This document shows, one piece after another, positions 20,636-60,334 of a stretch of DNA of 64,000 nt (the first letter of the stretch is position 1; every line of letters starts with the position of its first letter). Made by a program: the position numbers and the translations under genes. Source of the stretch: a virus; IMG/VR virus record IMGVR_UViG_3300037471_000902, positions 47,858-111,857 of that record; one strand, written 5' to 3'. The notes under the pieces are model-generated. The model saw only the letters and a program-made list of their open reading frames with translations, was not told the DNA's origin and did not search any database.

Positions 20636-21085
20636 ATGAAGATTCGCGACATCATTGAAGGAAACGTTACCCACATAAAGCGCGTTCTTGATCTGGCAAC
20701 AGGTGAGTGGAAGATGATTGACATGTCTAAGGCAAAGCCAATCAGCATGATGGCTGCACTTGGCGATGAAGAAGGTGCAGCCCTCCAGGAAGCTGGAGTT
20801 CATCTGGCTGAGAAGCCAGATGATTGGGAATATCTTGATGATCACTACGTCATTACTCCTTCTAAGATGCGAAAGGTTGAAGAAATCTTAGGACGCGAAC
20901 TTGATCGTGTAGCTGGTGAAACTCTTTTTGGTGGTGTAAAACCTCGAGGTCCTCTTGCTCAACTTAGCAAGGAACCGAAGAGAGGGATTTTTGTCATTCA
21001 GTTCGTGCAGGATGGCAGCAAATATCTTGTAAACACATTGCACGCCAACTCATACATTCGTATGTGGGCTAAGATTGACGTATGA
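20636..21085 (+). CDS. Hypothetical protein with a CTS-like N-terminus (MKIRDIIE)
   Basis: AAGGA RBS; N-terminal motif shared with the head-targeted family. Confidence 0.6.
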   Translation: MKIRDIIEGNVTHIKRVLDLATGEWKMIDMSKAKPISMMAALGDEEGAALQEAGVHLAEKPDDWEYLDDHYVITPSKMRKVEEILGRELDRVAGETLFGGVKPRGPLAQLSKEPKRGIFVIQFVQDGSKYLVNTLHANSYIRMWAKIDV

Positions 21086-21636
21086 AACTTCACAAAATTC
21101 TTCTAGAACAGGAACGTGGCTGGCGCGTTCTGCATGGCGCGGAAGCTGACAAAGATGAGTACGTTGGTGCTCGGGTTGGTACACTAGATGACACAACCTA
21201 CGACGAGCTTGTTGCTATTTTAGGTGAACCAACTGAAAAAAATGTCGGTGATGATTTTGATAAGTGTGCTGTCAAATGGGTCATTCTTGGAAATGATGGA
21301 ACAGTTTGCCGCATTTATGACTACAAGCAGTCCACACAGTACACTGGCGACGAAGACTTAGAATTCAGCAATCTCCATGATGATGAGGATGTTGCTAGGG
21401 AATTGGAAATGAAACAACATGGAAGGTCGCAAACTGAAGCTGAGAGATTGGGGGTTTCGCGTGTCAATTCGTGGAGTATTGGTGGTGGAGCAAACGACAT
21501 TGAAAAGAGATTGCATGATCGGTTCGGGCAAAGGATGACAGCTGGCGTCGCCGTTGAATTAGCCAAAAAAATATTTGGTGATAAAGCTGTTCACAGCATC
21601 TTTGAGAAACCCTTTAGGGACATGTTTAACAGTTAA
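21082..21636 (+). CDS. CTS-like protein (MKLHKILLE) with FSNLHDDED motif
   Basis: ATGA overlap with the upstream gene; shared motif at 21364-21390. Confidence 0.65.
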   Translation: MKLHKILLEQERGWRVLHGAEADKDEYVGARVGTLDDTTYDELVAILGEPTEKNVGDDFDKCAVKWVILGNDGTVCRIYDYKQSTQYTGDEDLEFSNLHDDEDVARELEMKQHGRSQTEAERLGVSRVNSWSIGGGANDIEKRLHDRFGQRMTAGVAVELAKKIFGDKAVHSIFEKPFRDMFNS

Positions 21637-21688
21637 TTTAAAACTCTTGCTGTGATAAAATCATACAGTCGAGGACCCCTCTTGATGT

Positions 21689-22252
21689 ATGAGCATTGAT
21701 GATATCGAACTTTCAGGATCCTTCTTTCGAAGACTTGCTCCATCCGAACAGCAAGTCTTCCTTCAAAATCTCGCAACGCGTCGTAGACGATATGAGGCAA
21801 TTAGCTCAGCGTTACGAGGTGAATGCGGTCTTTCCGAAGAGTGCAAGAAAAAACTTCTCATTGTGGGCGACCGACCCGGTCCATCCAGACCCACAGATCC
21901 TCGATTTCATCATACACCTTTCTATTCCACATTCCACTGTTCAGGATGGCTCAACGCACTTCAGGTTGATGAAGGAACGCCAGAGGACGAGCTCGTCTGG
22001 ATTAACTCTACAAATGAGTTGGGATGCAATCTCCCTGGAAGAATCCTCACAGCGCTAGAACCATGGGGAATTATCTTGCTGGGCGGACATGCAAGTAAGT
22101 GGTTTGAAAGCACTGATGGGAATGAGAACTGGCGAATTCAATTCCGTTTTGACCATCCTCAGTACTGGAAGCGGTTTCGGAACAAGGATCCATATCCTAT
22201 CTTCCGAGAGATGAATGAGTTGATTGCCGGACGCAGAGACAGATTGTGGTAA
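21689..22252 (+). CDS. Uracil-DNA glycosylase superfamily (UDG-like) protein
   Basis: Motif A-like LLIVGDRPG, then PF, SGWL, WINS, IILLGGHA and motif B-like HPQY. GAGG RBS; extended -10-like TGATAAAAT at 21653-21661. Confidence 0.65.
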   Translation: MSIDDIELSGSFFRRLAPSEQQVFLQNLATRRRRYEAISSALRGECGLSEECKKKLLIVGDRPGPSRPTDPRFHHTPFYSTFHCSGWLNALQVDEGTPEDELVWINSTNELGCNLPGRILTALEPWGIILLGGHASKWFESTDGNENWRIQFRFDHPQYWKRFRNKDPYPIFREMNELIAGRRDRLW

Positions 22253-22290
22253 TTTGATTGTCTGAAGGGGTCAGATGAGGCCCAGAGATG

Positions 22291-22320
22291 AAAAAAGGGA
22301 GCCTATGAAAGCTCCCTTTT
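22291..22320. terminator. Bidirectional intrinsic terminator
   Basis: AAAAAAGGGAGC-CTATGAAA-GCTCCCTTTT between convergent genes 21689..22252(+) and 22319..22768(-). Confidence 0.8.
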
Positions 22321-22768
22321 AAGTTGGGTTGGATGTCTCTGGGAGGATCAGATCCTCACCATCAAAAATTTTGACTGTCCCATAACCAAAAACCTTCTCA
22401 AGGGCTTCTCTGTAGCGAAGCTGCAGACTTGGCAAGACAAAACTCGCATGTGAGGAGCGTGATGACTTGACGGTAACATCAGCATGAACTTGATGACCAC
22501 GTGGATACATCTTCTCCTTCTTAAGAAGTTCCTTCACGTGATTAGCTACTTCAGGATCATCGCTCAAATCACTTATCAAGTCATGCTTCAAATCCTTTAG
22601 ATCACCCTTTCTTCGCAGTCCATGCACATAGACGTCCTCGCAATTGCCTAGAGCCTTCTTCAAGGCATCTATGATTTCCGTCTCACTCATCTCTCTACTC
22701 AGCGTGATGACATAGTAGATGGCATAGTATGAGTAATTCTCGGCAAGAAATTGTTTGAACGTGTTCAT
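22319..22768 (-). CDS. CTS-like protein (MNTFKQFLAE) with ISDLSDDPEV motif
   Basis: Closest match in the window to the T4 IP CTS; ATGA overlap with the upstream gene. Confidence 0.65.
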   Translation of the reverse strand: MNTFKQFLAENYSYYAIYYVITLSREMSETEIIDALKKALGNCEDVYVHGLRRKGDLKDLKHDLISDLSDDPEVANHVKELLKKEKMYPRGHQVHADVTVKSSRSSHASFVLPSLQLRYREALEKVFGYGTVKIFDGEDLILPETSNPT

Positions 22769-24348: not shown

Positions 24349-24351
24349 GGT

Positions 24352-24957
24352 TTATTTTCCTAGCTTGCACTTGAACTTACCATCGTGGAAGTAAAGAGTC
24401 ATCATTACCTGCATCGTTAAGTATGGGAAATATTCATCATTTGTAAATTCATTCCACGCATCAATTACACAATTGATGAAATGTTCACCAGTGATTTCAT
24501 TTGGTGTTAAGTCATCACCCATATAACGACTAAAACCCCTCGTGGCCATGGCGCGCATTGAGGCACTGGCAATGCCAATGCGTTTGAGTTCTCTAAAAAG
24601 AAGATTCAAGCTATCAACAGCATCAAGTAAAGATTGTTCAATCTGTGATTTTTGTTCTGGTATCTCAAGGTCTTCATTTCCATCATAAAGATTGTCTAGG
24701 AAATGTTTGTTGGAATCGGCTTGCTTAATTTGGCAAATGACTGAAATGTTATCATCATTTTTAAATTCGTGCACATTAGTAAAAACCGAGAGATCAATTT
24801 GCTCATTATTTGACTGTAACAGATTTACATATCCTGCTGGCGAGTTGGGATGCAATCTCCCTGGCACCTTGCGGTTAAACGCAGCCTCAAGCATTGTTCT
24901 CACAATATTACTAAGAATTGTCCCGCGCCGATAACTGGCCACTTCGTTTAATTTCAT
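24352..24957 (-). CDS. CTS-like protein (MKLNEVA) with LDNLYDGNEDLEI motif
   Basis: ATGA overlap with the o-spanin stop; shared motif at ~24661-24703. Confidence 0.6.
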   Translation of the reverse strand: MKLNEVASYRRGTILSNIVRTMLEAAFNRKVPGRLHPNSPAGYVNLLQSNNEQIDLSVFTNVHEFKNDDNISVICQIKQADSNKHFLDNLYDGNEDLEIPEQKSQIEQSLLDAVDSLNLLFRELKRIGIASASMRAMATRGFSRYMGDDLTPNEITGEHFINCVIDAWNEFTNDEYFPYLTMQVMMTLYFHDGKFKCKLGK

Positions 24958-25250
24958 TTTGATGATTGTTGATCGAGCTTCTTCTGTTCGTCGCTTAGAA
25001 ACTTTGCGATTTCATGAAGTTTTGCTTCGAGTTCTTCAACGCGCATATTCATTTCGGCTGCCCAACGAGCAACGTCAGATTGATCTGCCTTGTCCCAATC
25101 AACACTAGGTAATGGAGCTGGAATAGTAAGCGATTCTTTGGGAGGAACGCGAAGAATGTATTCCTGCTTTACAACAGTTGTTGGTTCAATCTTTTCCACT
25201 GACGCACAACCCGTCAGCAGAATCATTAATGCTAAAGCGATCTTCTTCAT
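24954..25250 (-). CDS. o-spanin (outer-membrane lipoprotein, Rz1-like)
   Basis: Signal peptide II with lipobox LTGC; Pro-rich linker; C-terminal helix; directly downstream of the i-spanin. Confidence 0.75.
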   Translation of the reverse strand: MKKIALALMILLTGCASVEKIEPTTVVKQEYILRVPPKESLTIPAPLPSVDWDKADQSDVARWAAEMNMRVEELEAKLHEIAKFLSDEQKKLDQQSSK

Positions 25251-25657: not shown

Positions 25658-25689
25658 ATTTTCCCTTTTACTTCATCCATGACTGAACA

Positions 25690-26010
25690 TCATAGCTTCT
25701 TGCTCGTCAGACCTCGCATAAACTTCATATGGTCGTCACGTACTTTCTGTTTCGCAAAGCCAGCAGGTTTTGCAAACTTTTCAAACTTAGCCCGATCCAT
25801 TTGAAAGTCGAGATTAGGATTACTAGCATCACAGAATTGTACAACCGTGTCAGTTAGATCAGTGATTTGGTACAGGTGATCATCGTAGACCGCTACTTCA
25901 CCTTTTTTAAAGAATGAATATGCGCGCGTCGAAGTTTTGAATTCAAATTCCATATCTACTTCAAGCGTCATTTCGACTATCAATGACCCCAATTCTTGTA
26001 GAAGTTTCAT
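25690..26010 (-). CDS. Small CTS-like protein (MKLLQEL...), probable paralogue of 26288..26572 and 60002..60334
   Basis: Start moved to ATG 26010 (ATGA overlap); beta-rich core; C-terminal KFMRGL. Confidence 0.55.
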   Translation of the reverse strand: MKLLQELGSLIVEMTLEVDMEFEFKTSTRAYSFFKKGEVAVYDDHLYQITDLTDTVVQFCDASNPNLDFQMDRAKFEKFAKPAGFAKQKVRDDHMKFMRGLTSKKL

Positions 26011-26237
26011 AGAGTTCTGCGTGATGCAGTAGTTAGGGCGCGGAGAGCCGCGTTGAACGCACAAGGTTCGACACGAAGGTTACCCAAATCATAGTCATTT
26101 ATGACTGATTCATCAACTTCATTGAAGTGGAAAATTCCCTTGTTGCCAATCTTCTCAATGTAGTCTAGGCGATAGCCTAAAAACTTCAAGGAAGCTGCTA
26201 GAAGAATGTCTTGGGTTTCGATGGTCTTTTTGGACAT
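26007..26237 (-). CDS. Small protein, DUF5659-like
   Basis: TQDILLAASLKFLGYRL...KGIFHF pattern; AGGA RBS inside a hairpin that contains TAAATA. Confidence 0.5.
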   Translation of the reverse strand: MSKKTIETQDILLAASLKFLGYRLDYIEKIGNKGIFHFNEVDESVINDYDLGNLRVEPCAFNAALRALTTASRRTL

Positions 26238-26239
26238 GT

Positions 26240-26281: not shown

Positions 26282-26287
26282 TTGGGA

Positions 26288-26572
26288 CTAGCTTTTTAAT
26301 GAATTCAGGAAGGCACGATCAAATTCACGTTTCGGCGACGTCGAATTAAGGAATGTTTTCTCGTCAAGATCGAATAATCCAGCATCAACATCAGTCGCGT
26401 CGATAAAATAGACGCGTCCATTCTTTCTTTCCTTAACAAGGATTTTGTGTCCTGGGGAGAAATAATTGTCAGGAGGCGGGACATTCCCGCACTCGCACCC
26501 GGCTTCGAAAGGCTTCGTGACAACGAACATGTCGGCACTTTCGAATAGATCAAATAAATCACAGACTTTCAT
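26288..26572 (-). CDS. Small CTS-like protein (MKVCDLFDLFE)
   Basis: ATGA coupling; paralogous pattern with 60002..60334. Confidence 0.55.
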   Translation of the reverse strand: MKVCDLFDLFESADMFVVTKPFEAGCECGNVPPPDNYFSPGHKILVKERKNGRVYFIDATDVDAGLFDLDEKTFLNSTSPKREFDRAFLNSLKS

Positions 26573-27123
26573 TCAAATTCCTTCAAATGCTTAATCAACT
26601 CGACAGTCTGTCTGACATCCTTGCTATATTGATACATGGCATCGCGCTGTTTCTGACCGTGCAGCGAGTTTATCTTCTTCAGGTACTCGCGTGAGTTTAG
26701 GTAATGATAGCGCGCACCAACAGCATTCTTAAGCCATTTTTCGAAACCATATTTAAAGCCGTCGCGCGTGAGCACGAATAGTAGGGACCAATCAACACGC
26801 ACCTCAAAACTTTTATCGGGGGTTAGTATACCTTCAAGTGCCTCGAACTCTTTATCAAGTTTCTTAAGCGCTTTGTTAGCTAATGAGCTGAGCTGATCCT
26901 TTTCATCTATGGACAGCAAATCATAGTAGTCAAAGCAAGTATTACTGACGTTCCATTTGAAAGTAACAACATACTCCCCATCACCAGCCCATGCGTATTT
27001 TCTCTTATCGATAGTGACGTTAACGAATTTGTCCGCTTTTGCAAGTTCATGTTTTGCACGTTCAAAATAGATCTTCCTGTACTCTGGTGGGAAGTCACCA
27101 TCGATAAGTTCACTAAATTTCAT
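26569..27123 (-). CDS. CTS-like protein (MKFSELIDGD)
   Basis: ATGA coupling; the N-terminus itself matches the shared LxD[DG] motif. Confidence 0.6.
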   Translation of the reverse strand: MKFSELIDGDFPPEYRKIYFERAKHELAKADKFVNVTIDKRKYAWAGDGEYVVTFKWNVSNTCFDYYDLLSIDEKDQLSSLANKALKKLDKEFEALEGILTPDKSFEVRVDWSLLFVLTRDGFKYGFEKWLKNAVGARYHYLNSREYLKKINSLHGQKQRDAMYQYSKDVRQTVELIKHLKEFE

Positions 27124-27563
27124 TTTCGTCTACCCATGCGGCGATCGTGGGCACGTTGTCTTAATTCATCTTGTACGTCAGGATCATCATGCAGATCATG
27201 AAGTTTCAGCTTGTTTGCAGAAAGATATTGCACGTCTCTTAGCATGTTGTGTGCAGCTAAAGCAATTTCATCTGCTTCAAAGCGACCTGGAGAGTTAGGA
27301 GAAGAGAAGTGCGGTTTGAAGTACTCACTTTTGATTTCATTCTCGTCTCCGAACAGTCGCAGACGAACTTGCTCCATATATTCATGATACTCAATCTCAA
27401 CACACGGGTCATCTTCTTCTGTAGCAGCCGCATTGTAGACGATGAGCATGTGCTCACCATGAAAATCCTCGATATACAGCTTACCACCCCTCAATTCATC
27501 CTTGATGTTCTTGATTGGGTTTTGAATCTTGAAACGATTTTCAAGAAGCTCTATGAATTTCAT
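27120..27563 (-). CDS. CTS-like protein (MKFIELLE) with LHDLHDDPDV motif
   Basis: ATGA coupling; motif at ~27172-27210. Confidence 0.65.
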   Translation of the reverse strand: MKFIELLENRFKIQNPIKNIKDELRGGKLYIEDFHGEHMLIVYNAAATEEDDPCVEIEYHEYMEQVRLRLFGDENEIKSEYFKPHFSSPNSPGRFEADEIALAAHNMLRDVQYLSANKLKLHDLHDDPDVQDELRQRAHDRRMGRRK

Positions 27564-28129: not shown

Positions 28130-28173
28130 TAAATTTCTCCGTGGAGCTGATTCTATTTATCCATGTGCCTTCA

Positions 28174-33671: not shown

Positions 33672-33688
33672 TTCTCAAATTTCCTTTT

Positions 33689-46747: not shown

Positions 46748-46748
46748 T

Positions 46749-46785
46749 CTGGAATCTCATCACGGGAATGAGATATTTATCCCAG
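46749..46785 (-). promoter_or_regulatory. Late promoter overlapping an RBS-occluding hairpin
   Basis: ATCTCAT/ATGAGAT and CTGG/CCAG arms; minus-strand TAAATA at 46774-46779. Confidence 0.55.
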
Positions 46786-46811
46786 GTAGTCAATCTTGAT
46801 ATTGACCTATT

Positions 46812-47018
46812 TTAAAAATCTTCTGAGCACCATTCATAATCATAGTGAGTCGTGAAGATCTGATACACCTCGATTTGAATGCTAGTATGGCTACCCTGTT
46901 CCTCAACATAAACATTCACCTTTGGAACAAGTCGTGGATCCTTGTCCCTTACATCCTGCTGTCTGTGCAGAATTCCAGTTCCATATGCGAATATTCCGGC
47001 TGGAGTGAGAGTAGCCAT
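46812..47018 (-). CDS. Small hypothetical protein
   Basis: Starts 3 nt after the gp6-like stop and fills the intergenic gap. Confidence 0.45.
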   Translation of the reverse strand: MATLTPAGIFAYGTGILHRQQDVRDKDPRLVPKVNVYVEEQGSHTSIQIEVYQIFTTHYDYEWCSEDF

Positions 47019-47021
47019 GTT

Positions 47022-50795: not shown

Positions 50796-51379
50796 TTTAC
50801 GAACTCAAAGTTAAGAGTAATTTTAGGAGCGTAGTAGACACTGTCCTCGTGATACTCTTTGAAATGATCAATTGCTGCCTGAGGAGTGACGGTAATGTTG
50901 GTTGCATGACCGCCTACAGCTCCCGTGTAGTAGGAAACAGACTTTAGCGTCATGATATCTAGATCTTCCTTCACGAGAGTACGGAGGAATGCTGTGATAA
51001 TGCGCTTGGATTTATCATTTATAGCGCGACGTTCGTCCATGGTCATGCGCTTTGTCTTTGCCTTTTGCGCGGCTTTAATGTCTTCAGCGTCATCGCCATC
51101 ATACAGATCTGATAAATCCATCGAGTAGTCTAGGGGAAGGTACTTTCCAGAAATTGAAATAGAATAGTAGACACCATCACCACTAAGGCCTGTAGACATG
51201 TGGTGTTTGTAGTCATAAGTACCGTTTTCATTATCTGAGTGGTTAACGCGAAGCCAGTTAGTTGCGTCAGCAATTTTCTTAACTTTCTCAGAGACAATGT
51301 CGATAGCTCTACGCTGCTCGGGTGAGAGATGTCTAGTAGCTTTCTTTCTAGCTTCAAGAAGGAATTCTTTAAATCTCAT
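50792..51379 (-). CDS. CTS-like protein (MRFKEFLLE) with MDLSDLYDGDD motif
   Basis: ATGA overlaps at both ends (gp25 stop, gp6 start); motif at ~51077-51121. Confidence 0.65.
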   Translation of the reverse strand: MRFKEFLLEARKKATRHLSPEQRRAIDIVSEKVKKIADATNWLRVNHSDNENGTYDYKHHMSTGLSGDGVYYSISISGKYLPLDYSMDLSDLYDGDDAEDIKAAQKAKTKRMTMDERRAINDKSKRIITAFLRTLVKEDLDIMTLKSVSYYTGAVGGHATNITVTPQAAIDHFKEYHEDSVYYAPKITLNFEFVK

Positions 51380-51744
51380 CGAGACTTCACCTCAATATGT
51401 AGAACGTCGCGAACGTTAAACTCAATATAGAGTAGATCCGCGAGGGCGATGATTGCGTTGTTGTCAGGAAGACTGAGCACTTTCAAATCTATGAGTTTGA
51501 CGCGCGGATCATAGTTGCAAACCTCGCGAATGTCCGTCTCAATGATTTTCACCGTCTCAGTATCATTGGGTTCAAATGTCAGAATGGGTATTCTGGTGCC
51601 AAAATTCGGCATCATTACTCGCTCACCCTTGACAGTGTAGATGTGATTCAGCAGGTCGCGCTTCACCAGGTCAATGTTAGACAGAGAGGTAGTTTTGCGC
51701 TGCCTCCAATCTGCCGTTGAAAATCCACGATAAATTCTTGCCAT
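51376..51744 (-). CDS. gp25: Baseplate wedge subunit, T4 gp25-like
   Basis: YRGFST, DLLNHIYTVKGERVMMPNFGTRI, YDPRV. Confidence 0.9.
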   Translation of the reverse strand: MARIYRGFSTADWRQRKTTSLSNIDLVKRDLLNHIYTVKGERVMMPNFGTRIPILTFEPNDTETVKIIETDIREVCNYDPRVKLIDLKVLSLPDNNAIIALADLLYIEFNVRDVLHIEVKSR

Positions 51745-51770
51745 CCCTTATTTATCGGGAAATGACAGGA

Positions 51771-52658
51771 TTAATTTTCGTAATCCTGCTGATGTTTTCT
51801 TAACGCATTTTCTGCGTCAGGATCATCAACAAGTGAGCTGAAGTCAATAGGGATGATGTTCAATAGGCGAAGCACTTCGGCCGGATCTTCCTGCATAGCC
51901 GGCATAGTCCCAGTTTGATTCATCATTTGAAGTATGAATCGACCAGTTGGATCATCAACGACTTGCTCAACTCGTTCAAGAGACATCTTGATAAGCTTTC
52001 CACCGTTCCCATTGGCGACTCGATGTGCTACTAGCGCGCAAACACTTGTAAAGCGGGTATTTCGCGGTGAATAAATTCCATACTCTAAGTTCCACTTCCT
52101 GGTGAGAAGCGGCTTCAATGAGTGCTCGACCCAGTTGTTGAATATATTTTCGCGTTCTTCAGCATCAAAAAATTGCGCCTCGGAAACTTTGCGGTCCTTA
52201 AGAGCTTTCTTTTGCGCATTCTTGATTTCGATTTCAGCTTCTGGATCATCTATCAAGTTGCTTAGATCCATCACATGAATTTCAAGATCACGAGCAATGG
52301 TTTTGGCCGACACGTCAAAACGTGGAATTTCTTCATACTCAGTGTCAATTTGATATGAGACACCAACGTAGTCTTCTGGGTGCGTTGCGTTAAATTCCTT
52401 CCTATCTGCTTCAACAGCAATCCCGCCGTCCATGGCTGGCTCTCTCCAGATGTCAACAGTCCATTCATCCACATTGAAGTCCACATACCACTTCAACACA
52501 TAGTCTTCTGGAATGTTTACATCAGCTAGAACATTCCAGACATCGTCACGCAAGCGACTAGTTAAACTATCAATCCTGTCCCAATATTCATCAGCCTTGG
52601 CGTCAGCATAACTATAGTCATCATCCCAATCATGTTCAAATAGGTTAGATACTTTCAT
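51771..52658 (-). CDS. Two-module CTS-like protein (MKVSNLFE) with two LxDDP motifs
   Basis: MDLSNLIDDPEAE (~52233-52271) and IDFSSLVDDPDAE (~51810-51848); internal VSE/A junction. Confidence 0.65.
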   Translation of the reverse strand: MKVSNLFEHDWDDDYSYADAKADEYWDRIDSLTSRLRDDVWNVLADVNIPEDYVLKWYVDFNVDEWTVDIWREPAMDGGIAVEADRKEFNATHPEDYVGVSYQIDTEYEEIPRFDVSAKTIARDLEIHVMDLSNLIDDPEAEIEIKNAQKKALKDRKVSEAQFFDAEERENIFNNWVEHSLKPLLTRKWNLEYGIYSPRNTRFTSVCALVAHRVANGNGGKLIKMSLERVEQVVDDPTGRFILQMMNQTGTMPAMQEDPAEVLRLLNIIPIDFSSLVDDPDAENALRKHQQDYEN

Positions 52659-53908
52659 TACTTTTTCCAGTTTGGGCCACGCGTCTTTCTAGAAATAGGT
52701 CTAGACCATGGTTCATGATCAGGAACAATAGGCGGAGTCTCAGCTTTGTTTCCGCATTGTGCAGGCTGGGCTGTTCTTGCGGCAGGTCCATTCAAATCGA
52801 TACGAGATCCCTGTAGCTTCATGCCCTTTGCAGATTTCAAATCCAACTCACGATTGCTATTTACCGTAACATCCTGCTTCACGCTAATATCAAGGTTCTT
52901 TTCTCCCAGCAGCAACGCGTTGCCTTCAATGACCTGGTGAAAGTTCCCGCAAACCGACGTGAACATATCCTTGTTAACTTTCAAGTGGAGAGATTTTCCT
53001 GTCGTGATGTTGATGTCACCGTCAGCAGCATTGATGTTCACTCCCTTAACAGCGTCCATGTTGATCTTTCGCCCAGCAGTGAAGTTGATATCCTGATCTG
53101 CAGTAACGCTGAACGATGATGCGCTGTAGACGTGAACATGGCCGTCGCTATCCATTTCAAGCCATGATTTACCCTTGTCAGTGCTGACATAAATGCGTTC
53201 ATTCGCATCATCCATGATCATTTGGTGACCGCTTGCAGTGCGAATACGAGCGCGTGACCAGCGAGGATCATCCTGGAAAATGATTGAATGCCGGCCTGGA
53301 GTTACCCAACAGTAGGTTTGGGAATCAAGGTAGGATTCATTTCTTACTGGTGTACGCGAATAACCTTCTTGTCCATCCTTGTCAAATTGCTGTTGCGCGA
53401 CTTGACGTTCATATAGACCTCGTGTCAGCGTTTCAGGTTCTGTCATCTTGTTCTGAAACTGCTCACGAAGATTGGTGTACGCTGGTTCAATTCTATTCAA
53501 TGACATTCCATCCTCTGAACCTGCGTCACCCCATGGACCTGGTTGACCCCTAGGGTCAACGTTTCTGCCTAACGGCAAAGAGCGGTTTCTATGAAGGCGG
53601 AATGTTGACGCGAAATAGTATCGACGACGTGAATCACCACCTAGGAAGAAGCATAATACAGTAGCCCCCATTTTTGGGATAGCCCAAAAACCATAGGAGG
53701 TGTGTGAACTATTTTCTACGTTTTCGCCGCCAGCTGGAAATTCAACCGTGAATCCGGCCAATGGTGAAGCGTACTCAGCCCATGGTAGCATATCTCCGTC
53801 AAATGAATCTCCATCAATTGCTGGAATCCATACCTTGACGCGACCCATCTGGTCAGGATCATCTGTAAAAATGACCTGACCTTCATAAATGAACGGAACT
53901 AATTCCAT
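52658..53908 (-). CDS. gp5: Baseplate central spike, gp5/VgrG-like (OB fold + beta-helix, no lysozyme domain)
   Basis: DPDQMGRVKVWIP, LPWAEYASP, YGFWAIPKMGATVLCFF, RIRTASGHQMIMDDANERIY, IDLNGP, PDHEPW. Confidence 0.8.
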   Translation of the reverse strand: MELVPFIYEGQVIFTDDPDQMGRVKVWIPAIDGDSFDGDMLPWAEYASPLAGFTVEFPAGGENVENSSHTSYGFWAIPKMGATVLCFFLGGDSRRRYYFASTFRLHRNRSLPLGRNVDPRGQPGPWGDAGSEDGMSLNRIEPAYTNLREQFQNKMTEPETLTRGLYERQVAQQQFDKDGQEGYSRTPVRNESYLDSQTYCWVTPGRHSIIFQDDPRWSRARIRTASGHQMIMDDANERIYVSTDKGKSWLEMDSDGHVHVYSASSFSVTADQDINFTAGRKINMDAVKGVNINAADGDINITTGKSLHLKVNKDMFTSVCGNFHQVIEGNALLLGEKNLDISVKQDVTVNSNRELDLKSAKGMKLQGSRIDLNGPAARTAQPAQCGNKAETPPIVPDHEPWSRPISRKTRGPNWKK

Positions 53909-53911
53909 ATT

Positions 53912-56251
53912 TTATACTCTTCCTACGCCACGATTTGGTCCACGGCGGAAACCAGTACTTGGACCAACAAATGCAGCCCCGCCTCCATTCTCAGTGACAG
54001 TGCGCCCCGGCGGAATAGGTGGTGGGTCAGCGCGGGGTGTGGACGGAGGCACGTCTTCTTTTTTCTTGATTGGCTCAGTCGGTGCTGTTGTCGTCGCATT
54101 CGAGAATGATCCATCATAATCCACTGGGACGAGCGACAGTACATGCTTGAAGGTTCCATTCTCAAACGATGTTGTCATTGCCAAAATCATGTAGTAGCCC
54201 TGATAGAAAAACTTCTGGGTATACATTTCTTTTGGATCAATGACATTTCCAGCTAGATCAAAGTTTGGAGCCTTGATATTTATTTTCACAAACACTGGAC
54301 AAGTTGCGACATCAGAGCCGTCTAGAAGCGGGTCATCAGCAGATTTTCGCATCTCATCGTCATGTTTGGGTTTAACATATTTGTTGAAATACTCCAATTT
54401 AGCTGACTGGAACCGTGTTGACATCCTATTCTTGAAATATTTTTCAATGTCAGGTGCGGCCGAAAGAGTAGTGGTAAACATCTCCAAATCATTTGCACTT
54501 ATTAGTGACGATGGGTGTGGGGGAATACCTCCACGCAGTACAACATCACCATACTTACGAATGAGATTAGGATTGCCTCGAATAGTCAGCTGTGTTTGTA
54601 GAGATCCGGTGAAATGCAAAAATGCCATCGTCGCCGAGTACTCTCTTTTAGCACGCACAACTGCTCGCGCTTGTTCGCCACTTAATTCTTCTGTGCGCTC
54701 ACCAGCATGATTAGTTTTCTCATCCTTCAATTTGATCGGAAAAAAGATAGGATCAGAAGGACGAATGTTGGGATTAAAATCCGGAGTCTTTTCTGTGGTT
54801 GGAGAAGACTGTTTATCCATTTCACTTCTAGATGCACCAGCTTGACTAATGTTGGCAAAGCGCTTATCACCAATCTCAAGATCTCTATCTAGACCAACTA
54901 CAGAAGTTGGAGAAAATTGAATGTCTAAATCTAGAATTTGACTATTTCTACCTGTGAACAGGTAGTCATACGTTATAAGATTTCGTGGACGCCCATCTGG
55001 CAGGGATGCTGCTGCTTTCTTTGGCGAAGCAACTTGATATTTCAATCTACGAGACATCGCATCAGAATACTGTGGATCATCCTTTACTTCTATTTTTGGC
55101 GCACGATATGGATAGACGTCAAAATGGATGACGTAAGTATTTGAATCGCTAGTCACCCCAGCAACTGTCTTGTGGAGAACAGCTTCACCCTGGAGTCGAC
55201 GCTCAAAGCTTGCCAGATCCAAAAATTCCTTAGATGATTCCAAAATCATGCTTAGCGCATCTTGGATAGACAAATTGTCATGAAGGGACAGGTAACTTGC
55301 GCGCGCTTTTGCGGCCGCCTCAGTACTCTTTCCAGAAGCAATCGCGTCTTGCTCTAGTTTTTTAGCGTTCTTCTCGTTTTCTTTTTTCCTAGCAACAAAC
55401 ACTTGCTCGATGTTTTTTGATTTATCAGCGGTGTCAAGTGTAAAATTCTGCCATTCCTCAGGAATGGTGATCATGTATTGAACTAATTTTCCTGCACGCT
55501 CAACCTTTTTGTCCTTTGAACCCTTTGAACCCTTGAGCGCATCGTTAGAATATTTGTTGTAGAACTGAAGAGATGATATGTTCAAGAAATCTTCAAGTGC
55601 TTGAATCATTCCACCAACAGTATTAGCCCTCTTCTCAGTGCTGATGGTCAGAGTTCCGCCAAGATCATTAATTGACGGAATACGCTGACCTGGATTCCCA
55701 CTTACTTCAATGAACTCCAAATCAAACACTGATCCCGAAGACGCGAACTTGAACCCCAGATTAAGGAGGAACATGTTCATGAAGCATTTGTCAATGACTT
55801 TAGTGGTTCCGTCGTCACGATGACCAACGAACTCAACAGATAATAGAAAGAATGCAGACGCTCTAGTTGACTGCAACTTGTTCTTCATGATATCCATCAG
55901 GAAATTGAAAAACGAAAGTCCAGTCGTATCAGTGACTCGCATTTTATGGGCAACTGATGGAACAGTCGGATTTTGAATCTTGCCCGTTCCAAAAATATGA
56001 TGGCATTCAAATGAGTCAACAGTGAAATGCGAGTATCGCTTCGTGTCAAGTATCACATACGCATCCATCCCGTTGATCTTTTCACCTAGACGCGTTTGGC
56101 TAACAATATCTCTAAATGAGACAGACCCACTTTCAGTAGGAGTCAGAAGTTTTCGATATGCCTCAGTCGTATTACCAACAACCAAAGTGAAGTGATAGGA
56201 ATACGACCTAAAATTATCTAGTGGATTTGGGTAGTTATGTTGGTCTGTCAT
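53912..56251 (-). CDS. Baseplate hub protein (gp27/gpD-like)
   Basis: NPLDNFRSYSYHF, YDYLFTGRNSQILDLDI, LTIRGNP, FFYQGYYMI...FENGTFKHVL; adjacent to the gp5-like gene. Confidence 0.65.
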   Translation of the reverse strand: MTDQHNYPNPLDNFRSYSYHFTLVVGNTTEAYRKLLTPTESGSVSFRDIVSQTRLGEKINGMDAYVILDTKRYSHFTVDSFECHHIFGTGKIQNPTVPSVAHKMRVTDTTGLSFFNFLMDIMKNKLQSTRASAFFLLSVEFVGHRDDGTTKVIDKCFMNMFLLNLGFKFASSGSVFDLEFIEVSGNPGQRIPSINDLGGTLTISTEKRANTVGGMIQALEDFLNISSLQFYNKYSNDALKGSKGSKDKKVERAGKLVQYMITIPEEWQNFTLDTADKSKNIEQVFVARKKENEKNAKKLEQDAIASGKSTEAAAKARASYLSLHDNLSIQDALSMILESSKEFLDLASFERRLQGEAVLHKTVAGVTSDSNTYVIHFDVYPYRAPKIEVKDDPQYSDAMSRRLKYQVASPKKAAASLPDGRPRNLITYDYLFTGRNSQILDLDIQFSPTSVVGLDRDLEIGDKRFANISQAGASRSEMDKQSSPTTEKTPDFNPNIRPSDPIFFPIKLKDEKTNHAGERTEELSGEQARAVVRAKREYSATMAFLHFTGSLQTQLTIRGNPNLIRKYGDVVLRGGIPPHPSSLISANDLEMFTTTLSAAPDIEKYFKNRMSTRFQSAKLEYFNKYVKPKHDDEMRKSADDPLLDGSDVATCPVFVKINIKAPNFDLAGNVIDPKEMYTQKFFYQGYYMILAMTTSFENGTFKHVLSLVPVDYDGSFSNATTTAPTEPIKKKEDVPPSTPRADPPPIPPGRTVTENGGGAAFVGPSTGFRRGPNRGVGRV

Positions 56252-57276
56252 TTTTGTGGTGGGAATCTTAGAACAATCTTGATGTCCATTCCCATTTTTG
56301 TATTGATGCTTTTCAGGAGATAGAGCCCCAATCCTCGCCAGCGCAGGTAGGCCGCGTAGTCGCTACTCTGCAAAACATAATGGCTATCCTGATTTTTTGC
56401 CTTCAGTGTCATGCTGACCAGCCCCATTTTCTTCCATCTATCAACCATGCGATAGAATACGAACGTGAAGCGGTCCCATGCGTCTTGACTGAATCCACCG
56501 CCGTGGTCTTTTGTTCTATTCAACAGTTTGCGCATCTCCTCTCTATTTCCATCATAGAGACTTGCAATATTTAATTGAGAGAACGTCATCGACAAATCCA
56601 TCTGGTACCAAAATCCAGTTTCAAGATCAATGCGTTCACCTTCCGTGATTGCATCCCATAGTTCTGAATCATTGAACGCATCGATGTCTGTCGTGCCAGC
56701 ATCTTGAATTCGTTTGACGAATGCTGTAGTATCTACTGCTTCTTCAATCTGGTCAGCAGGTTTTCTAAACCATAGGCGCCATGTGTCATCAAAACTGACT
56801 GTTTCTTCATCAGCTTCATCAGCTTCGTAAGTCGTAAGATGCGTCAAAATGTCAAACTTATCAACTTGAATACGCTCATCAGAAGAAGTGGGTGAAATAA
56901 ACTCAAGACCGTGCGTTTTATACTTTTCGAACAGTTCTTTCAACGCTTTTTTCAGAGTTTCCTTATTAGCTTGCCAAGGATAATTTTTGGGAATGTCAAG
57001 ATCTGTATCACCATCATAAAGATCGTGAAAATTCATCGGTGTTTCGCCCAAATGTCCCTGAATTATGAAGATAAATACCCAAAAATTACCAGTATGGAAT
57101 GGATCACGCGGCGTGTAGATAGCTGAAAGATCGGCAAGGGTCGCCATGCCTAATGTTGTCATTTCATGCTGATATTTTTCAGACACCTTAACTTTTTCAT
57201 CTGCTAGTATCCGCACAAATGGCTGCCGTTTAATATATTCCTGACTTGCTTTGTCAAAGATTTCGTTGATCTTCAT
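56248..57276 (-). CDS. Two-module CTS-like protein (MKINEIFD) with two LYDG motifs
   Basis: MNFHDLYDGDTDLDI (~56992-57036) and LNIASLYDGNREE (~56536-56574); IEE/A junction between the modules. Confidence 0.65.
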   Translation of the reverse strand: MKINEIFDKASQEYIKRQPFVRILADEKVKVSEKYQHEMTTLGMATLADLSAIYTPRDPFHTGNFWVFIFIIQGHLGETPMNFHDLYDGDTDLDIPKNYPWQANKETLKKALKELFEKYKTHGLEFISPTSSDERIQVDKFDILTHLTTYEADEADEETVSFDDTWRLWFRKPADQIEEAVDTTAFVKRIQDAGTTDIDAFNDSELWDAITEGERIDLETGFWYQMDLSMTFSQLNIASLYDGNREEMRKLLNRTKDHGGGFSQDAWDRFTFVFYRMVDRWKKMGLVSMTLKAKNQDSHYVLQSSDYAAYLRWRGLGLYLLKSINTKMGMDIKIVLRFPPQK

Positions 57277-57651
57277 TTAGACAACCACTGGGGAAATAAT
57301 TGGAGTTAATTCACGCTTCGAATCTAAACCGCCCTTACGACCAATCAAAATACTTTCTAGACGAACTTTGGACGGAATGTAGAGGATTCTACCGGCAGTA
57401 ATCTCGCTAATTGGATCCAAAATGTTGTTGTACTGCGCCAAGAACCACCAGAAGCGAGGTTCACCATAGAAAACCGCTGAGATATTGTCAAGGCGCCCTT
57501 CATAGAAATTTTCAACAACATAGATTGTGTCTGATGCATCTTGGGTGAATGTTGCGCGCTCCCACCATTCAATACGATTTCCATCAGTTTCTGTCGCACC
57601 ACCGTGAACATAACGGCTAAATCCGTTGTAGAGACTATTGCTGTTGCTCAT
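57277..57651 (-). CDS. gp53: Baseplate wedge subunit, gp53/LysM-like
   Basis: YEGRLDNISAVFYGEPRFWWFLAQYNNILDP...GRILYIP. Confidence 0.75.
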   Translation of the reverse strand: MSNSNSLYNGFSRYVHGGATETDGNRIEWWERATFTQDASDTIYVVENFYEGRLDNISAVFYGEPRFWWFLAQYNNILDPISEITAGRILYIPSKVRLESILIGRKGGLDSKRELTPIISPVVV

Positions 57652-58745
57652 TTGAAGTTCTTCCCAAAATTAATGGCATCTTGCATTGTTCTAGGTACCC
57701 CATCTGCCTTTGCTCTCGTCATATCAACAAGTGATCCTTCAGCGATTCGCGCCTTAGTCAAGTCAGTAAGCTTTTGGATAGTAGCAGCATCATAGGCGTT
57801 TTGAGGTTCAGAATTAGCAAGTGGTGTAGCCCCTGACACTGTAGCAGCCGCCACATCATTTGCCTGTTGTTCCTTGGCGAGTCCTGATCCAGCTGGCGGC
57901 TGCGCTGGTTTGCTAAATCCCCTGTAAGCATCCTGCATATTGCCAAGTTTGTAATCAGTAATACTGAAAGATGATGTTTCCGCTGGTGACCAGGATTCTT
58001 CAAGAGACAAACTTACTTCAACAATCACCGGCACTGCTACCCCGGTATCAGCTTCAATGTAATCGATTGTGTTGTCATATGCCCAATTGTAATCTTTCAT
58101 GACGCATTTCACTGGTCCAATCATATTGGTACCATAAGCTTTAAGCGTCAAAATTGGCGGTGGTGCGCCAAGGAAATCAGGCATGCTGCTAGCAGTGCCT
58201 TCACCAAAAAACGGCATGCGCCAAGAGCGAATAGTGTTCATAATGAGCAGCGTTCGACGCGCCTCATCTCTCGTGCGGGAAATCAGTTTTGCATTAATAC
58301 TCCACGAGCGAGCGGTGCTGTATCGATATTTTTGAATTACACCAGGGTGATGGGTTGGCTGAACAGCTTCATAATCTGCTCCACCCCTTTCATCAATGCG
58401 TGGCATCACATCAAAGATCACGGTGTCTAAAGCGCCTGAAACACTAGGGCTTTGCGTGATAATGACTTTGCGATCAATCGTTGGTGGACGATCGCCATAA
58501 AGTGCTTCGGGCGGAATGATGTTCTCTGAGCGGTGAACTTCTTCATTTCGAAATTCTGACACAGCATCGATGAGAGAACTGTCGACTTTAGAAGGGTCAG
58601 TGACAACACCTCCATTGAAGTCAGCGATTGTTCCATTAGAGCTCAGTTTTTGCGCGGCCTCAGCAACTTTCTTGTCGACACTTGCTACACCAAAGTCCTG
58701 ATTTTGATAAGTTTCAATTTTCGCGCTAGCACTGTCAAGTGTCAT
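57648..58745 (-). CDS. Baseplate tail-tube initiator-like protein (gp48/gp54/CIS tube-type)
   Basis: ADYEAV...H...KYRYST, GAPPPILTLKAYG, PVIVEVSLSLEESWSP; immediately upstream of the gp53-like gene. Confidence 0.55.
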   Translation of the reverse strand: MTLDSASAKIETYQNQDFGVASVDKKVAEAAQKLSSNGTIADFNGGVVTDPSKVDSSLIDAVSEFRNEEVHRSENIIPPEALYGDRPPTIDRKVIITQSPSVSGALDTVIFDVMPRIDERGGADYEAVQPTHHPGVIQKYRYSTARSWSINAKLISRTRDEARRTLLIMNTIRSWRMPFFGEGTASSMPDFLGAPPPILTLKAYGTNMIGPVKCVMKDYNWAYDNTIDYIEADTGVAVPVIVEVSLSLEESWSPAETSSFSITDYKLGNMQDAYRGFSKPAQPPAGSGLAKEQQANDVAAATVSGATPLANSEPQNAYDAATIQKLTDLTKARIAEGSLVDMTRAKADGVPRTMQDAINFGKNFK

Positions 58746-58746
58746 A

Positions 58747-60009
58747 TTACTCTCCTAGAATCTTTACCAAAATTTCTTTGCTTGGAACCAGCTCCCCATT
58801 AAGATAGGGATAATAATTGCCAGCACCATGGAATTCCCAGCGAGCTGGGTGGAACCCATCTACGAATGGAATAGTATTACCATGAGCAGAATTTTTGTCG
58901 CCGCCGAAAATGTTAGCAAGATCAATAAAGACCTCATTCAGATCAACTTTCTTTTTCTTGTTTTTTAATCTGTCACTTGCCACGTCATCATCCATCAACC
59001 CACTAAAAAAATCTTCCGGAGTTTCTGCTCTTGAACCCTCCGGCATAATCGATATGCCAATATGCCCTTGTGAATCAAAAGGATACATTGAACCAGTGAA
59101 CCAAAATTTATCATTATCTAGTGCGTAGAATGAAAACATTCTGTCCTCATCCTTAAATTTAACGCGTACATCAGGATATTGCTTGAAGAACTCAACAAGA
59201 CGTTGATTGGCCTTTTCTAAGAAGTAAGCTAACAGCGTGATAATACGGGCGCCGCTGAGTTCGTTAGGATTAAATGCCTCCTTTACTTCATCAGGATCAC
59301 CTTTTGCACCATCTATAGTCTTCTTAATCTTATCGAACAGCATTTTGGCAAGCTTTTGGTTTCTTTCTAAACCAACAATCTTCGCGAACTCTTCAAAATA
59401 TCCAAGTTCAGCTGCTCTACGAGCAAGGGACCCTGACACAATGTCAGTTTCAATAGCTTCACCGCCCCTGATAGCCTCTAGCGTATCATCAATGTTGTCC
59501 GCCTTAACAGCGCTTTTGGTCTCAACGGCACTTGCATCACGTTCAAGCGAGATGGGAACGTGCTTGATAGGTTTGTCGTTGGCGTCCTTGAAATATTTGT
59601 TCAAGATATTGATGTAGTCTTGAATGCGATCAGAACCTGCAGCAATAGCAATAGGCTCCATTCCTTGTTGGCGCACTTTAGTCAAGGCCTCAAAAGCGTT
59701 CGTTGCGCTAATGAACTTGACGCCATTTGCATGTCCACTTCCTTGCATGAACGTAATTCGCTCATGAACAGTAAGAGGATTGCGTAGCAGTTCGTCTGCA
59801 GTCTTTTTCTTTTTGTCGTTGCCGATCACAATCACTACTGGGATAGCATCGAGCTGGAGCTTATTAGCACGCACAAATTCGCGCACTTTTTGTATGAGCT
59901 CGTAGTGACCCTTCGTTGGTGGATTGAAGCGTCCAATGATGACAGCAACGCGCTTTGTTCCAGGGCCCGGAACATTCTCAAATAATGATTGGAATTCAAA
60001 CTTATTCAT
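58747..60009 (-). CDS. Cytidylyltransferase-like (HxGH nucleotidyltransferase) protein with a CTS-like N-terminus and an appended LxDD module
   Basis: IIGRFNPPTKGH, NPL, AGSDR, VSGSLARRA motifs. Start moved to MNKFEFQSLFE. C-terminal module after VKE/A carries FSGLMDDDV. Confidence 0.75.
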   Translation of the reverse strand: MNKFEFQSLFENVPGPGTKRVAVIIGRFNPPTKGHYELIQKVREFVRANKLQLDAIPVVIVIGNDKKKKTADELLRNPLTVHERITFMQGSGHANGVKFISATNAFEALTKVRQQGMEPIAIAAGSDRIQDYINILNKYFKDANDKPIKHVPISLERDASAVETKSAVKADNIDDTLEAIRGGEAIETDIVSGSLARRAAELGYFEEFAKIVGLERNQKLAKMLFDKIKKTIDGAKGDPDEVKEAFNPNELSGARIITLLAYFLEKANQRLVEFFKQYPDVRVKFKDEDRMFSFYALDNDKFWFTGSMYPFDSQGHIGISIMPEGSRAETPEDFFSGLMDDDVASDRLKNKKKKVDLNEVFIDLANIFGGDKNSAHGNTIPFVDGFHPARWEFHGAGNYYPYLNGELVPSKEILVKILGE

Positions 60010-60334
60010 CATCGCGTAGATCACCCATGAATCGTTTGCTTCGTTCGTTCTTTGAAATACAGCGTGATCTAAAGTGTTCTTCGTCTGTCCAATTCTCCGC
60101 AGACAAATTTGTGTGACCCATGAGAAGAACCTTAAAATAGACCATACCATTCTCAACTCTAGTGATTTGAACTTCACCATCATTCAGCCACTCATTCCCA
60201 TCCCCAGGCTTATCGATGACTTTAGTTACTTCTTTTCCAGCTTTATTCAGAGTGATGGCATAAAGTGGTTTCTCGACATACCAGATATCACCAGGTACAA
60301 GTTCTGATTCGAGAAGAGTTTGTAGCAATTTCAT
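60002..60334 (-). CDS. Small CTS-like protein (MKLLQTLLE) ending in FMGDLRDDE
   Basis: GGAG RBS; minus-strand TAAATA at 60353-60358. Confidence 0.65.
   Translation of the reverse strand: MKLLQTLLESELVPGDIWYVEKPLYAITLNKAGKEVTKVIDKPGDGNEWLNDGEVQITRVENGMVYFKVLLMGHTNLSAENWTDEEHFRSRCISKNERSKRFMGDLRDDE

Follow-up and report, generated by a model that had tools for sequence, protein, structure and literature searches.

A short acidic motif of the general form greasy-x-x-Leu-x-Asp-Asp/Gly recurs in proteins of the viral DNA analysed here, a stretch of 64,000 nt from an uncultured giant phage that is referred to below as the window. Our favoured reading, which we put forward tentatively, is that the motif is an uncleavable, Asp-type version of the targeting and processing element of phage T4 and is probably a second address tag that stays on the protein for good. 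All 12 copies reported in the first-pass annotation were found in place, within 10 open reading frames (Table 1). Two more strict copies lie upstream in the 112-kb contig, one at genome positions 10757-11155 and one in a 528-aa ORF at genome positions 46280-47866, which gives a contig total of 14. The consensus is F-phi-[SA]-[DN]-L-[HY]-D-[DG]-[DPE]-[ED]. All 33 copies had Asp at P1, coupled to the following [DG][DPNE]; P3 was Leu in 29 copies and Met in 4. Placement was internal or C-terminal for 11 of the 12 window copies, the sole N-terminal one being that of 26569-27123, and 6 of the 33 copies ended no more than 6 residues from the C-terminus of the protein.

Table 1. Motif copies, carriers, family S paralogs and baseplate genes in the window. 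Positions are nt of the 64,000-nt window; those of motif copies are exact 8-residue spans.
Feature	Position	Strand	Details
Motif FSNLHDDE	21364-21387	+	aa 95-102 of carrier 21082..21636
Motif ISDLSDDP	22553-22576	-	aa 65-72 of carrier 22319..22768
Motif LDNLYDGN	24676-24699	-	aa 87-94 of carrier 24352..24957
Motif FSELIDGD	27094-27117	-	residues 3-10, N-terminal leader of 26569..27123 (MKFSELIDGD)
Motif LHDLHDDP	27180-27203	-	aa 121-128 of carrier 27120..27563, 19 aa before C-terminus
Motif LSDLYDGD	51092-51115	-	aa 89-96 of carrier 50792..51379
Motif FSSLVDDP	51819-51842	-	one of two copies in carrier 51771..52658
Motif LSNLIDDP	52242-52265	-	one of two copies in carrier 51771..52658
Motif IASLYDGN	56545-56568	-	one of two copies in carrier 56248..57276
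Motif FHDLYDGD	57007-57030	-	one of two copies in carrier 56248..57276
Motif FSGLMDDD	58984-59007	-	C-terminal add-on of carrier 58747..60009
Motif FMGDLRDDE*	60005-60028	-	extreme C-terminus of carrier 60002..60334
Carrier, 184 aa	21082..21636	+	leader MKLHKILLEQE; no Pfam or PHROG match
Carrier, 149 aa	22319..22768	-	leader MNTFKQFLAE
Carrier, 201 aa	24352..24957	-	leader MKLNEV
Protein, 184 aa	26569..27123	-	leader itself is a motif copy
Carrier, 147 aa	27120..27563	-	leader MKFIELLEN
Carrier, 195 aa	50792..51379	-	leader MRFKEFLLEA; between gp6-like and gp25-like baseplate genes
Carrier, 295 aa	51771..52658	-	leader MKVSNLFEH; between gp25-like and gp5-like genes
Carrier, 342 aa, ORFan	56248..57276	-	leader MKINEIFD; between 779-aa hub protein and gp53-like wedge gene
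Carrier, 420 aa from corrected start 60009 (MNKFEFQSLFEN)	58747..60009	-	cytidylyltransferase/NMNAT-like domain, aa 18-241
Carrier, 110 aa	60002..60334	-	leader MKLLQTLLESE; SH3-like family S member
Family S paralog, 94 aa	26288..26572	-	degenerate terminal element FLNSLKS*
Family S paralog, 106 aa from MKLLQELGS (P0009)	25690..26010	-	degenerate terminal element FMRGLTSKKL*
Conserved baseplate module	47022..58745	-	PHROG matches; three carriers inserted
gp6-like	47022-50795	-	PHROG match
gp25-like	51376-51744	-	PHROG match
gp5-like	52658-53908	-	PHROG match
Hub, 779 aa	53912-56251	-	baseplate module
gp53-like	57277-57651	-	PHROG match
Baseplate-module gene	57648-58745	-	

Enrichment and spread of the motif

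The contig holds 14 copies versus a mean of 0.53 and a maximum of 4 in 1000-2000 residue shuffles, a comparison in which the pattern was derived from those very copies, so that contigs outside the sample are the fairer tests. Two such contigs, G001 and G005, are IMG/VR fragments of one related RsoM2USA-like jumbo phage. They contained 8 copies versus 0.24 in shuffles and 6 versus 0.19, respectively. The excess over shuffled controls, which the first-pass annotation had proposed to look for, was thus seen here and out of sample. The Glu form of the pattern was not enriched in the contig (1 copy versus 0.76 in shuffles). Large fibre and baseplate proteins contained no strict copy, in agreement with the first-pass annotation, and one loose match only, NNTLRDDPED in a 1468-aa protein.

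In 14 kb of contig L037 there were 4 strict copies, or 7 with a relaxed pattern. Regex scans of 43.6 kb from RsoM2USA gave no matches, and those of IMG/VR relatives (about 108 kb) gave 1; a motif profile run over the complete genomes of five related jumbo phages, together 1.72 Mb, gave none. Among known phages, none matched the sequence closely at the DNA level. When C-terminal copies were sought with a looser DNA pattern, the matches were mostly unrelated acidic tails, such as the FFDDLEDDDDE* ends of proteins of about 300 aa, and matches to the DNA pattern were counted only when several copies clustered in one contig.

It is very improbable that the motif arose by chance, is a compositional artefact or reflects a nucleotide-level element (a promoter, a recombination site or an overlapping ORF). 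Chance is excluded by the shuffles and by natural-sequence controls. The codons of both Asp residues are GAT in 23 of 23 cases in the contig, against a background of about 0.65-0.73, and create an out-of-frame ATG, which speaks for a nucleotide-level signal. However, the other contigs have 18 GAT to 9 GAC, which equals the background, and the Leu codons of the motif are mixed. As the GAT uniformity was not replicated in the other contigs, the nucleotide-level element and the overlapping ORF were rejected. A Dam site or a Shine-Dalgarno sequence was dropped after reading the codons.

Carriers, leaders and genomic setting

The carriers are mostly acidic and are putative head-packaged cargo. Searches of Pfam and PHROGs with the carriers returned nothing except the cytidylyltransferase domain. 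For 51771..52658 the query itself was the sole match among 5.8 billion protein clusters, and the protein search with 56248-57276 returned the query alone. A second contig encodes identical proteins. The description of the carriers as otherwise dissimilar was largely borne out, since blastp among them, within and between contigs, revealed no similarity save one 33-residue match spanning the motif itself. It did not hold for 60002-60334, which belongs to a recognisable paralog family (family S); the other carriers have no detectable homology to family S or to each other.

A protein was scored as having a T4-like leader if [LIF]-x-E occurred among its first 12 residues. Over the whole contig, 10 of 11 carriers had such a leader, versus 15 of 107 other proteins (p=3e-7), the latter figure reflecting a loose criterion. 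The link was also found in G001 (8/8 carriers versus 17/38 others, p=0.004) and in G005 (5/6 versus 11/38, p=0.018). In the window, the N-terminus resembling the T4 capsid-targeting sequence (CTS) that had been ascribed to every carrier was present in 10 of 10, in the case of 58747-60183 only after the start was shifted to 60009. The leader of 22319..22768 is identical to the T4 CTS at 6 of 10 positions. When scored with a matrix built from motif positions P8-P2, the leaders exceeded internal L-x-E sites (-4.1 versus -7.8, p=5e-6). The likeness to the N-terminal signal that had been remarked on earlier was supported, the motif having Asp where the cut site of the leader has Glu.

Beyond the enzyme domain, the cytidylyltransferase-like carrier is extended at its C-terminus by an add-on of about 180 aa, which bears FSGLMDDD. 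Both the leader and the add-on are missing from the RsoM2USA ortholog of this carrier (gene 368, 203 aa), and we read this as co-acquisition of the two. RsoM2USA genes 362-367 form a contiguous counterpart of the baseplate module without the carriers; judged by this sequence comparison, the window carriers in the module are lineage-specific insertions.

In G001, the carriers sit between the genes of the portal (phrog_213), a gp21-like protease (phrog_207, E=7e-55), a scaffold-like protein and the major capsid protein (phrog_138, 63% identical to that of RsoM2USA). This is the site where T4 encodes its prohead core proteins, and it was counted for the favoured reading. Over both phages, the operons in which the motif is placed are late ones, for head and for baseplate. 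A T4-type head set of gp21-like protease, scaffold and capsid protein is thus present in the lineage via this relative, which shares about 33-63% protein identity with the window phage or with the common relative RsoM2USA and is the only source of head-module context, as the window's own contig contains no head genes. A transglycosylase is among the relative's carriers.

Sequence context of the motif and family S

The surroundings of the motif are hydrophilic and are often linkers or the extreme C-terminus. Similarity of the 40-aa flanks was barely above background, both upstream (18.1 versus 17.4, p=0.007) and downstream (19.1 versus 17.5, p=6e-6). Together these properties of the sequence argue that the motif is probably not buried in the core of a single fold. 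The charged stretch that had been noticed after the motif was present on average, with 55% acidic residues at +6..+9 and 23-27% basic residues at +14..+21, versus a background of 11%. The D-D-P-E sequence is also a good helix N-cap. Single-sequence AF2 modelling of 56248-57276 gave a pLDDT of 31. In the ESM Atlas, the model of 50792-51379 was weak (pLDDT 0.61) with a faint IMS_C-like resemblance, and that of 24352-24957 was unusable (pLDDT 0.37).

In the family S carrier, the motif is placed on a confidently predicted helix at residues 95-107 (pLDDT about 77-90), which adjoins the conserved pattern E-[FY]-x-R-x-[FW]-[LM]. The predicted fold is SH3-like but weakly matched, and a Foldseek search of the model against PDB and BFVD found nothing significant. 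The motif helix may just pack on its own domain in this model. Homologs of family S elsewhere are leader-led polyproteins of tandem domains (P0004, P0008, P0011 and P0023), the domains of which end in [FW][LM]x[GSDN]-L-K-E where the window lineage has L-x-D-[DG]. The last domains of these polyproteins, at which no cut is needed, often end in L-x-D. Two polyprotein relatives, P0012 and P0018, have [LI]-N-E 3-6 residues after an L-x-D-[DP] element, so the Asp element could simply be the end of a helix beside a real cut site.

The model of family S also bears on the possibility that the motif is a structural module end, that is, an amphipathic helix turn F-phi-x-x-L with an acidic cap, retained in fast-diverging paralogs that have no common partner. 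The position of the motif on the modelled helix beside the conserved pattern fits such a role, some carrier pairs seem by eye to be related around the motif, and the flanks are slightly above background similarity. Nevertheless, we regard this explanation as unlikely. The motif is far better conserved than the rest of the carriers, across two diverged phages in which the carriers have no blastp match, and some copies stand at extreme C-termini with no helix after them. Moreover, motif and leader were both added to an enzyme whose ortholog has neither, and a tight link to the leader would not be expected of a generic structural cap. The C-terminal copies without a following helix also led us to reject a generic helix N-cap; a Ca-binding loop and an acid-labile Asp-Pro bond were rejected as each fits some copies only. 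The proposal that the motif is a short linear motif stood in so far as it behaves like an element selected at the protein level, occurs in non-homologous contexts and is tied to leader-bearing putative cargo. In at least one family, however, it is predicted to be part of a folded C-terminal helix and not a free peptide.

Relation to the T4 capsid-targeting sequence

The T4 CTS is the classic route for loading foreign or accessory proteins into the phage head and is used in phage engineering. To our knowledge, no binding partner of the T4 leader has been described. The CTS of IPI-III and Alt is MKTYQEFIAE (PMC8442874), in which residues 4 and 7 determine targeting and residues 8 and 10 determine processing (PMC9026906). 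Asp at position 10 (E10D) blocks processing while targeting is kept (Mullaney & Black 1996, reviewed in PMC9026906). The proteases of T4, phiKZ, 201phi2-1 and SPN3US all cut after Glu.

Like the T4 CTS, the motif is short and amphipathic, being aromatic at P7, aliphatic at P3 and acidic at P1, and it is carried by unrelated putative cargo of a lineage that has a gp21-like protease. Unlike the T4 CTS, it is mostly internal or C-terminal, has a natural Asp followed by the conserved [DG][DPNE], and shares its protein with a normal cleavable leader. The register also differs, with P4 polar and P6 hydrophobic in the motif, whereas the T4 targeting residue F7 corresponds to P4. The motif resembles gp21 L/I-x-E sites and the L-K-E junctions of family S polyproteins in marking a module end and in having the same upstream helix [FW][LM]xxL. 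It differs from a gp21-type site in its P1 Asp, and by T4 precedent it would remain uncut. The suggestion of an undescribed system has to be narrowed, the motif being in our reading a variant of the T4 CTS/gp21-site element. The idea of a non-cleavable internal copy gained real support, both from the T4 Asp-10 variant, which is uncut yet targeted (PMC9026906), and from the L-K-E found at the same position in distant relatives of one carrier family.

According to the favoured reading, the motif would mark the module end or C-terminus of proteins that have a T4-type capsid-targeting leader, and the head-core component that recognises the leader would still recognise the motif. The protease of the lineage is gp21-like, and its Glu specificity is assumed from homology, so the motif would stay uncut. 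Recognised but uncut, it would thus remain as a lasting second address or retention tag once the N-terminal leader is removed. We infer the recognition of the motif, its non-cleavage and the identity of its receptor. An elaboration of this reading is a two-signal code for head cargo, in which a cleavable leader is combined with a protease-resistant Asp copy that holds the cargo to a head-core receptor or to SH3-like adaptors; this we consider doubtful. If such a code exists, the motif would help to identify the CTS receptor and could be used as another portable tag with which proteins are loaded into phage heads. The two diverged giant phages together contain about 40 copies of the motif. If the favoured reading is true, phages use a second, permanent address signal, and the motif could serve as a peptide bait for the CTS receptor. 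The set of injected cargo would be enlarged as well, by the cytidylyltransferase here and the transglycosylase in the relative.

The motif may instead be a real cleavage site or an adjoining recognition helix. The protease of the lineage would then cut behind L-x-D, or else at the L/I-x-E that comes next, and so split the carriers into modules or trim acidic tails. Its position is equivalent to the L-K-E junctions of the family S polyproteins, it lies at module ends and in hydrophilic linkers, and [LI]-x-E is found 3-9 residues after some copies (P0012, P0018 and, as IPE, window carrier 24352). In addition, processing in T4 extends to the C-terminus of Alt (PMC9026906). We nevertheless find cleavage of the motif hard to favour, since Glu is the only residue after which T4 gp21 and the related giant-phage proteases cut, and a P1 Asp prevented cutting in T4. 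The Asp is invariant and coupled to the residues that follow it, whereas canonical L-x-E junctions occur in the same phages and even in the same proteins; together this suggests two distinct states. Furthermore, a nearby L/I-x-E is absent at most window copies, and C-terminal copies would shed merely 2-5 residues. If the motif were only an ordinary cut site or a structural module end, it would still be a useful marker of module boundaries in ORFan proteins.

Docking of the cargo to something other than the leader receptor was also considered, the partner being other cargo (for example SH3-like family S adaptors), basic DNA-associated proteins, the portal or ejection path, or, once injected, a host protein. 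In being acidic, hydrophobic and often C-terminal, the peptide is similar to known docking tails. Peptide binding is common among SH3-like folds, and the weakly matched SH3-like prediction for family S, as well as the acidity of most carriers, would be consistent with this. It seems unlikely that so many unrelated proteins would share one host target, and docking elsewhere is on the whole improbable. Short peptides that dock inside an HK97-fold shell or on its scaffold include the cargo-loading peptides of encapsulins and the C-terminal tails of the HK97-type prohead protease and the P22-type scaffold. These tags have no sequence similarity to the motif and resemble it by analogy only, in being short, conserved, often C-terminal and carried by unrelated cargo.

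Source phage and gene content

The window forms the final 64 kb of one 111,857-bp IMG/VR virus contig, whose completeness CheckV puts at ~31%. No near DNA match to it was found among the known phages searched. Compared over the full length, the gp6-like baseplate protein shares 43% identity with its counterpart in the Ralstonia jumbo phage RsoM2USA and is more distant from those in XacN1, GAP32, CBB and PA5oct. These relationships indicate that the source is an uncultured Rak2/RsoM2USA-like jumbo myovirus. The region contains a T4-like baseplate module (gp6-, gp25-, gp5- and gp53-like genes and hub proteins) and many small ORFs without database relatives, and no head genes were found on the 111,857-bp contig. 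Gene starts are longest-ORF calls, several of which were adjusted by eye. The three giant fibre-like proteins have shuffled repeat segments in common, which are up to 82% identical (over 203 aa). The M23-like protein may be a virion-associated lysin.

Features of the window (window coordinates)
Feature	Position	Strand	Remarks
321-aa protein	946-1911		C-terminal ~120 aa common to fibre-like protein 1945-5982
Giant fibre-like paralogs, three	1945-5982, 6078-11072, 12809-16897	+	
527-aa protein	22765-24348	-	peptidase/endolysin-type (M23-like) domain; lies among motif carriers
Leader-bearing ORFan insertions	50792-51379, 51771-52658, 56248-57276	same as baseplate genes	module 47022-58745 compared with locus L001 (RsoM2USA 236776-245745), contiguous there
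Cytidylyltransferase/NMNAT-like carrier	58747-60009	-	leader; motif in 180-aa C-terminal add-on

Recurrence and surroundings of the motif

All 12 copies of the acidic motif (hydrophobic-x-[DNSEG]-L-x-D-[DG]-[DPNE]) listed in the first-pass annotation were confirmed, in 10 ORFs, and two more strict copies lie upstream of the window. The 14 copies on the contig compare with a mean of 0.5 and a maximum of 4 in residue shuffles, the pattern having been derived from the same copies that were counted; therefore, independent tests were sought. A six-frame search of 43.6 kb of RsoM2USA gave no pattern matches, and ~108 kb of IMG/VR relatives with a gp5-like gene in common gave one. A 36-position profile built from ten copies gave no matches in the complete genomes of RsoM2USA, XacN1, GAP32, PA5oct and Vibrio phage 2.275.O (1.72 Mb in total). 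Degenerate DNA scans of IMG/VR led to three other contigs, all from metagenome 3300037471. The enrichment over shuffled controls was reproduced there in G001 (44.6 kb; 8 copies vs 0.24) and G005 (41 kb; 6 vs 0.19), while L037 holds 4 strict copies in 14 kb, or 7 under a relaxed pattern. An artefact is accordingly given very little credence. The G001 capsid protein is 63% identical to that of RsoM2USA, which indicates that the clade includes a second, diverged phage. No carrier (motif-bearing protein) matched any protein of another contig by blastp (E<1e-3). Out-of-sample enrichment, the null result in relatives and the lack of cross-contig carrier similarity argue that the motif is real, specific to a sub-lineage and kept while its surroundings diverged. 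Searches by pattern alone can be misled when the motif is defined loosely: ~300-aa proteins ending in SFFDDLEDDDDE in the unrelated IMG/VR contigs L028, L033, L034 and L055 fit such loose versions by chance, and these ends resemble the acidic tails of SSB-like proteins.

On this contig, GAT encodes both Asp residues of the motif without exception (23 of 23; background ~0.65-0.73). Elsewhere, 18 GAT and 9 GAC codons match the background, and the Leu codons are mixed. These two observations counter a DNA-level element and indicate that the peptide is under selection. The GAT uniformity creates an out-of-frame ATG at each motif copy (window 21364-60028).

Among carriers, blastp similarity runs solely through the motif itself. 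With the motif excluded, 40-aa flanks scored just slightly above random segments, at 18.1 upstream (random segments 17.4, p=0.007) and 19.1 downstream (17.5, p=6e-6). The C-terminus lies within 6 residues of the motif in 6 of 33 copies (e.g., the protein ends FMGDLRDDE, FLDNLHDDDED, FMSDLIDDE and MQDLMDGNED). On average, the residues before the motif are hydrophilic, with Pro, Glu or Asp often abundant, and those after it are hydrophilic too, first acidic and then basic. Such near-background flanks, C-terminal copies and hydrophilic context point mostly to a module end or linker and not a core, so that a single fold with a buried motif, the outcome that would have undone the initial proposal, is mostly not what we found as far as can be judged from sequence. 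We consider it unlikely that the motif is no more than a structural cap at module ends in fast-evolving paralogs.

Leaders and genomic setting of the carriers

Leaders, i.e., N-termini resembling the T4 capsid targeting sequence (CTS), were scored by T4's own rule, [LIF]-x-E in the first 12 residues. The proposed tie between motif and CTS-bearing proteins was borne out on this contig (10 of 11 internal-motif carriers vs 15 of 107 other proteins, p=3e-7) and replicated in G001 (8/8 vs 17/38, p=0.004) and G005 (5/6 vs 11/38, p=0.018). Several leaders are closely T4-like, e.g., MNTFKQFLAE vs T4 MKTYQEFIAE.

The carriers of the window are insertions within the conserved baseplate module; RsoM2USA genes 362-367 keep the same order without them. 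New putative cargo genes have landed in this structural operon. The cytidylyltransferase-like carrier lies in a long ORF (58747-60183) that overlaps 60002-60334, and translation most likely begins at 60009 (MNKFEFQSLFEN). In RsoM2USA, the ortholog (gene 368, 203 aa) lacks both the leader and the C-terminal add-on. Because the leader is of the capsid-targeting type, the product may be a packaged nucleotidyl-transfer enzyme.

In G001, the carriers are located among the portal, gp21-like protease (phrog_207), scaffold-like coiled coil and capsid genes, and a leader-bearing transglycosylase adjoins them. T4 prohead core proteins are encoded at the corresponding place. The RsoM2USA head module likewise contains no carriers.

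Relation to T4 processing sites

The T4 CTS comprises IPIII residues 1-10, of which 4 and 7 mainly govern targeting and 8 and 10 processing; Asp in place of Glu at residue 10 stops processing but leaves targeting intact; gp21 and its giant-phage relatives cleave after Glu only, and T4 Alt has a C-terminal propeptide as well (PMC9026906). Aligned at P1, the motif shares with the CTS an aromatic P7 (Phe in 14/33), an aliphatic P3 (Leu or Met in 33/33) and an acidic P1, but departs from it at P4 and P6. A matrix from motif P8-P2 ranks leaders over internal L-x-E sites (p=5e-6), in agreement with the resemblance to the leader signal noted at first pass. Since the full pattern shows no enrichment when Glu replaces Asp, Asp and the following [DG][DPNE] are selected together. 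None of the papers found in a literature search describes leader-bearing proteins with an additional Asp-type element, whether internal or C-terminal.

Carrier 60002-60334 belongs to an SH3-like paralog family; 12 domain copies of this family, drawn from this contig and G005, give a convincing alignment. The AF2 model made with this alignment (pLDDT 78) predicts that the leader (residues 1-7) is disordered, that an SH3-like barrel forms the body of the protein and that the motif sits on a C-terminal helix (95-107). Fold searches with the model gave no significant relative, and HMMER found only 28 members among 1.84 billion representatives. Several members are leader-led polyproteins starting with MRFKQFLES and containing up to seven tandem domains. 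Every polyprotein domain is closed by [FW][LM]x[GSDN]-L-K-E, which is a canonical L-x-E site of the T4 type, and the final domain, which needs no cut, often ends in L-x-D (LLDKDE, LKDDEV). At the equivalent position in the motif-bearing lineage, some copies have L-x-D-[DG] and others L-x-E, and both can occur inside one protein; the motif is thus the Asp form of an element that, in its Glu form, is a protease junction. Four homologs from other metagenomic phages (P0004, P0008, P0011, P0024) have 4-7 tandem SH3-like domains with L-K-E sites between them and look like arrays of small head proteins that a protease processes.

Our preferred reading, a tentative one, is that the motif copies the targeting/processing element in a protease-resistant form. 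The N-terminal leader would be clipped from the cargo, and the Asp-type copy would resist the protease and stay on as a permanent address or retention tag. We infer all three of its elements, namely carrier packaging, motif recognition and cleavage resistance. True cleavage at or beside the motif is improbable: some relatives carry [LI]-N-E 3-6 residues downstream of the Asp element, but gp21-type proteases cut after Glu only (PMC9026906), and P1 is Asp. Docking to another partner, e.g., SH3-like adaptor domains or a host protein, seems a distant prospect.

The C-terminal region of the G001 gp21-like protease (L013:17030-17650) contains TLAEAVLDDPKAQKYF, which resembles the motif and the following helix with the register off by one residue; RsoM2USA has VCNDKDAQKYL at the equivalent position. 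A second short motif, L-[RK]-[KH]-[LM]-A-G-[LIV], is present close to the N-terminus in two small G001 head-module proteins (L013:17650-17904 and L013:18582-19181), at the extreme C-terminus of the G001 scaffold-like protein (L014:1158-2015; FAELRKLAGI) and in RsoM2USA gene 380 (L001:402-716; MDITRLKHLAGV). It may be a separate head-core docking peptide.
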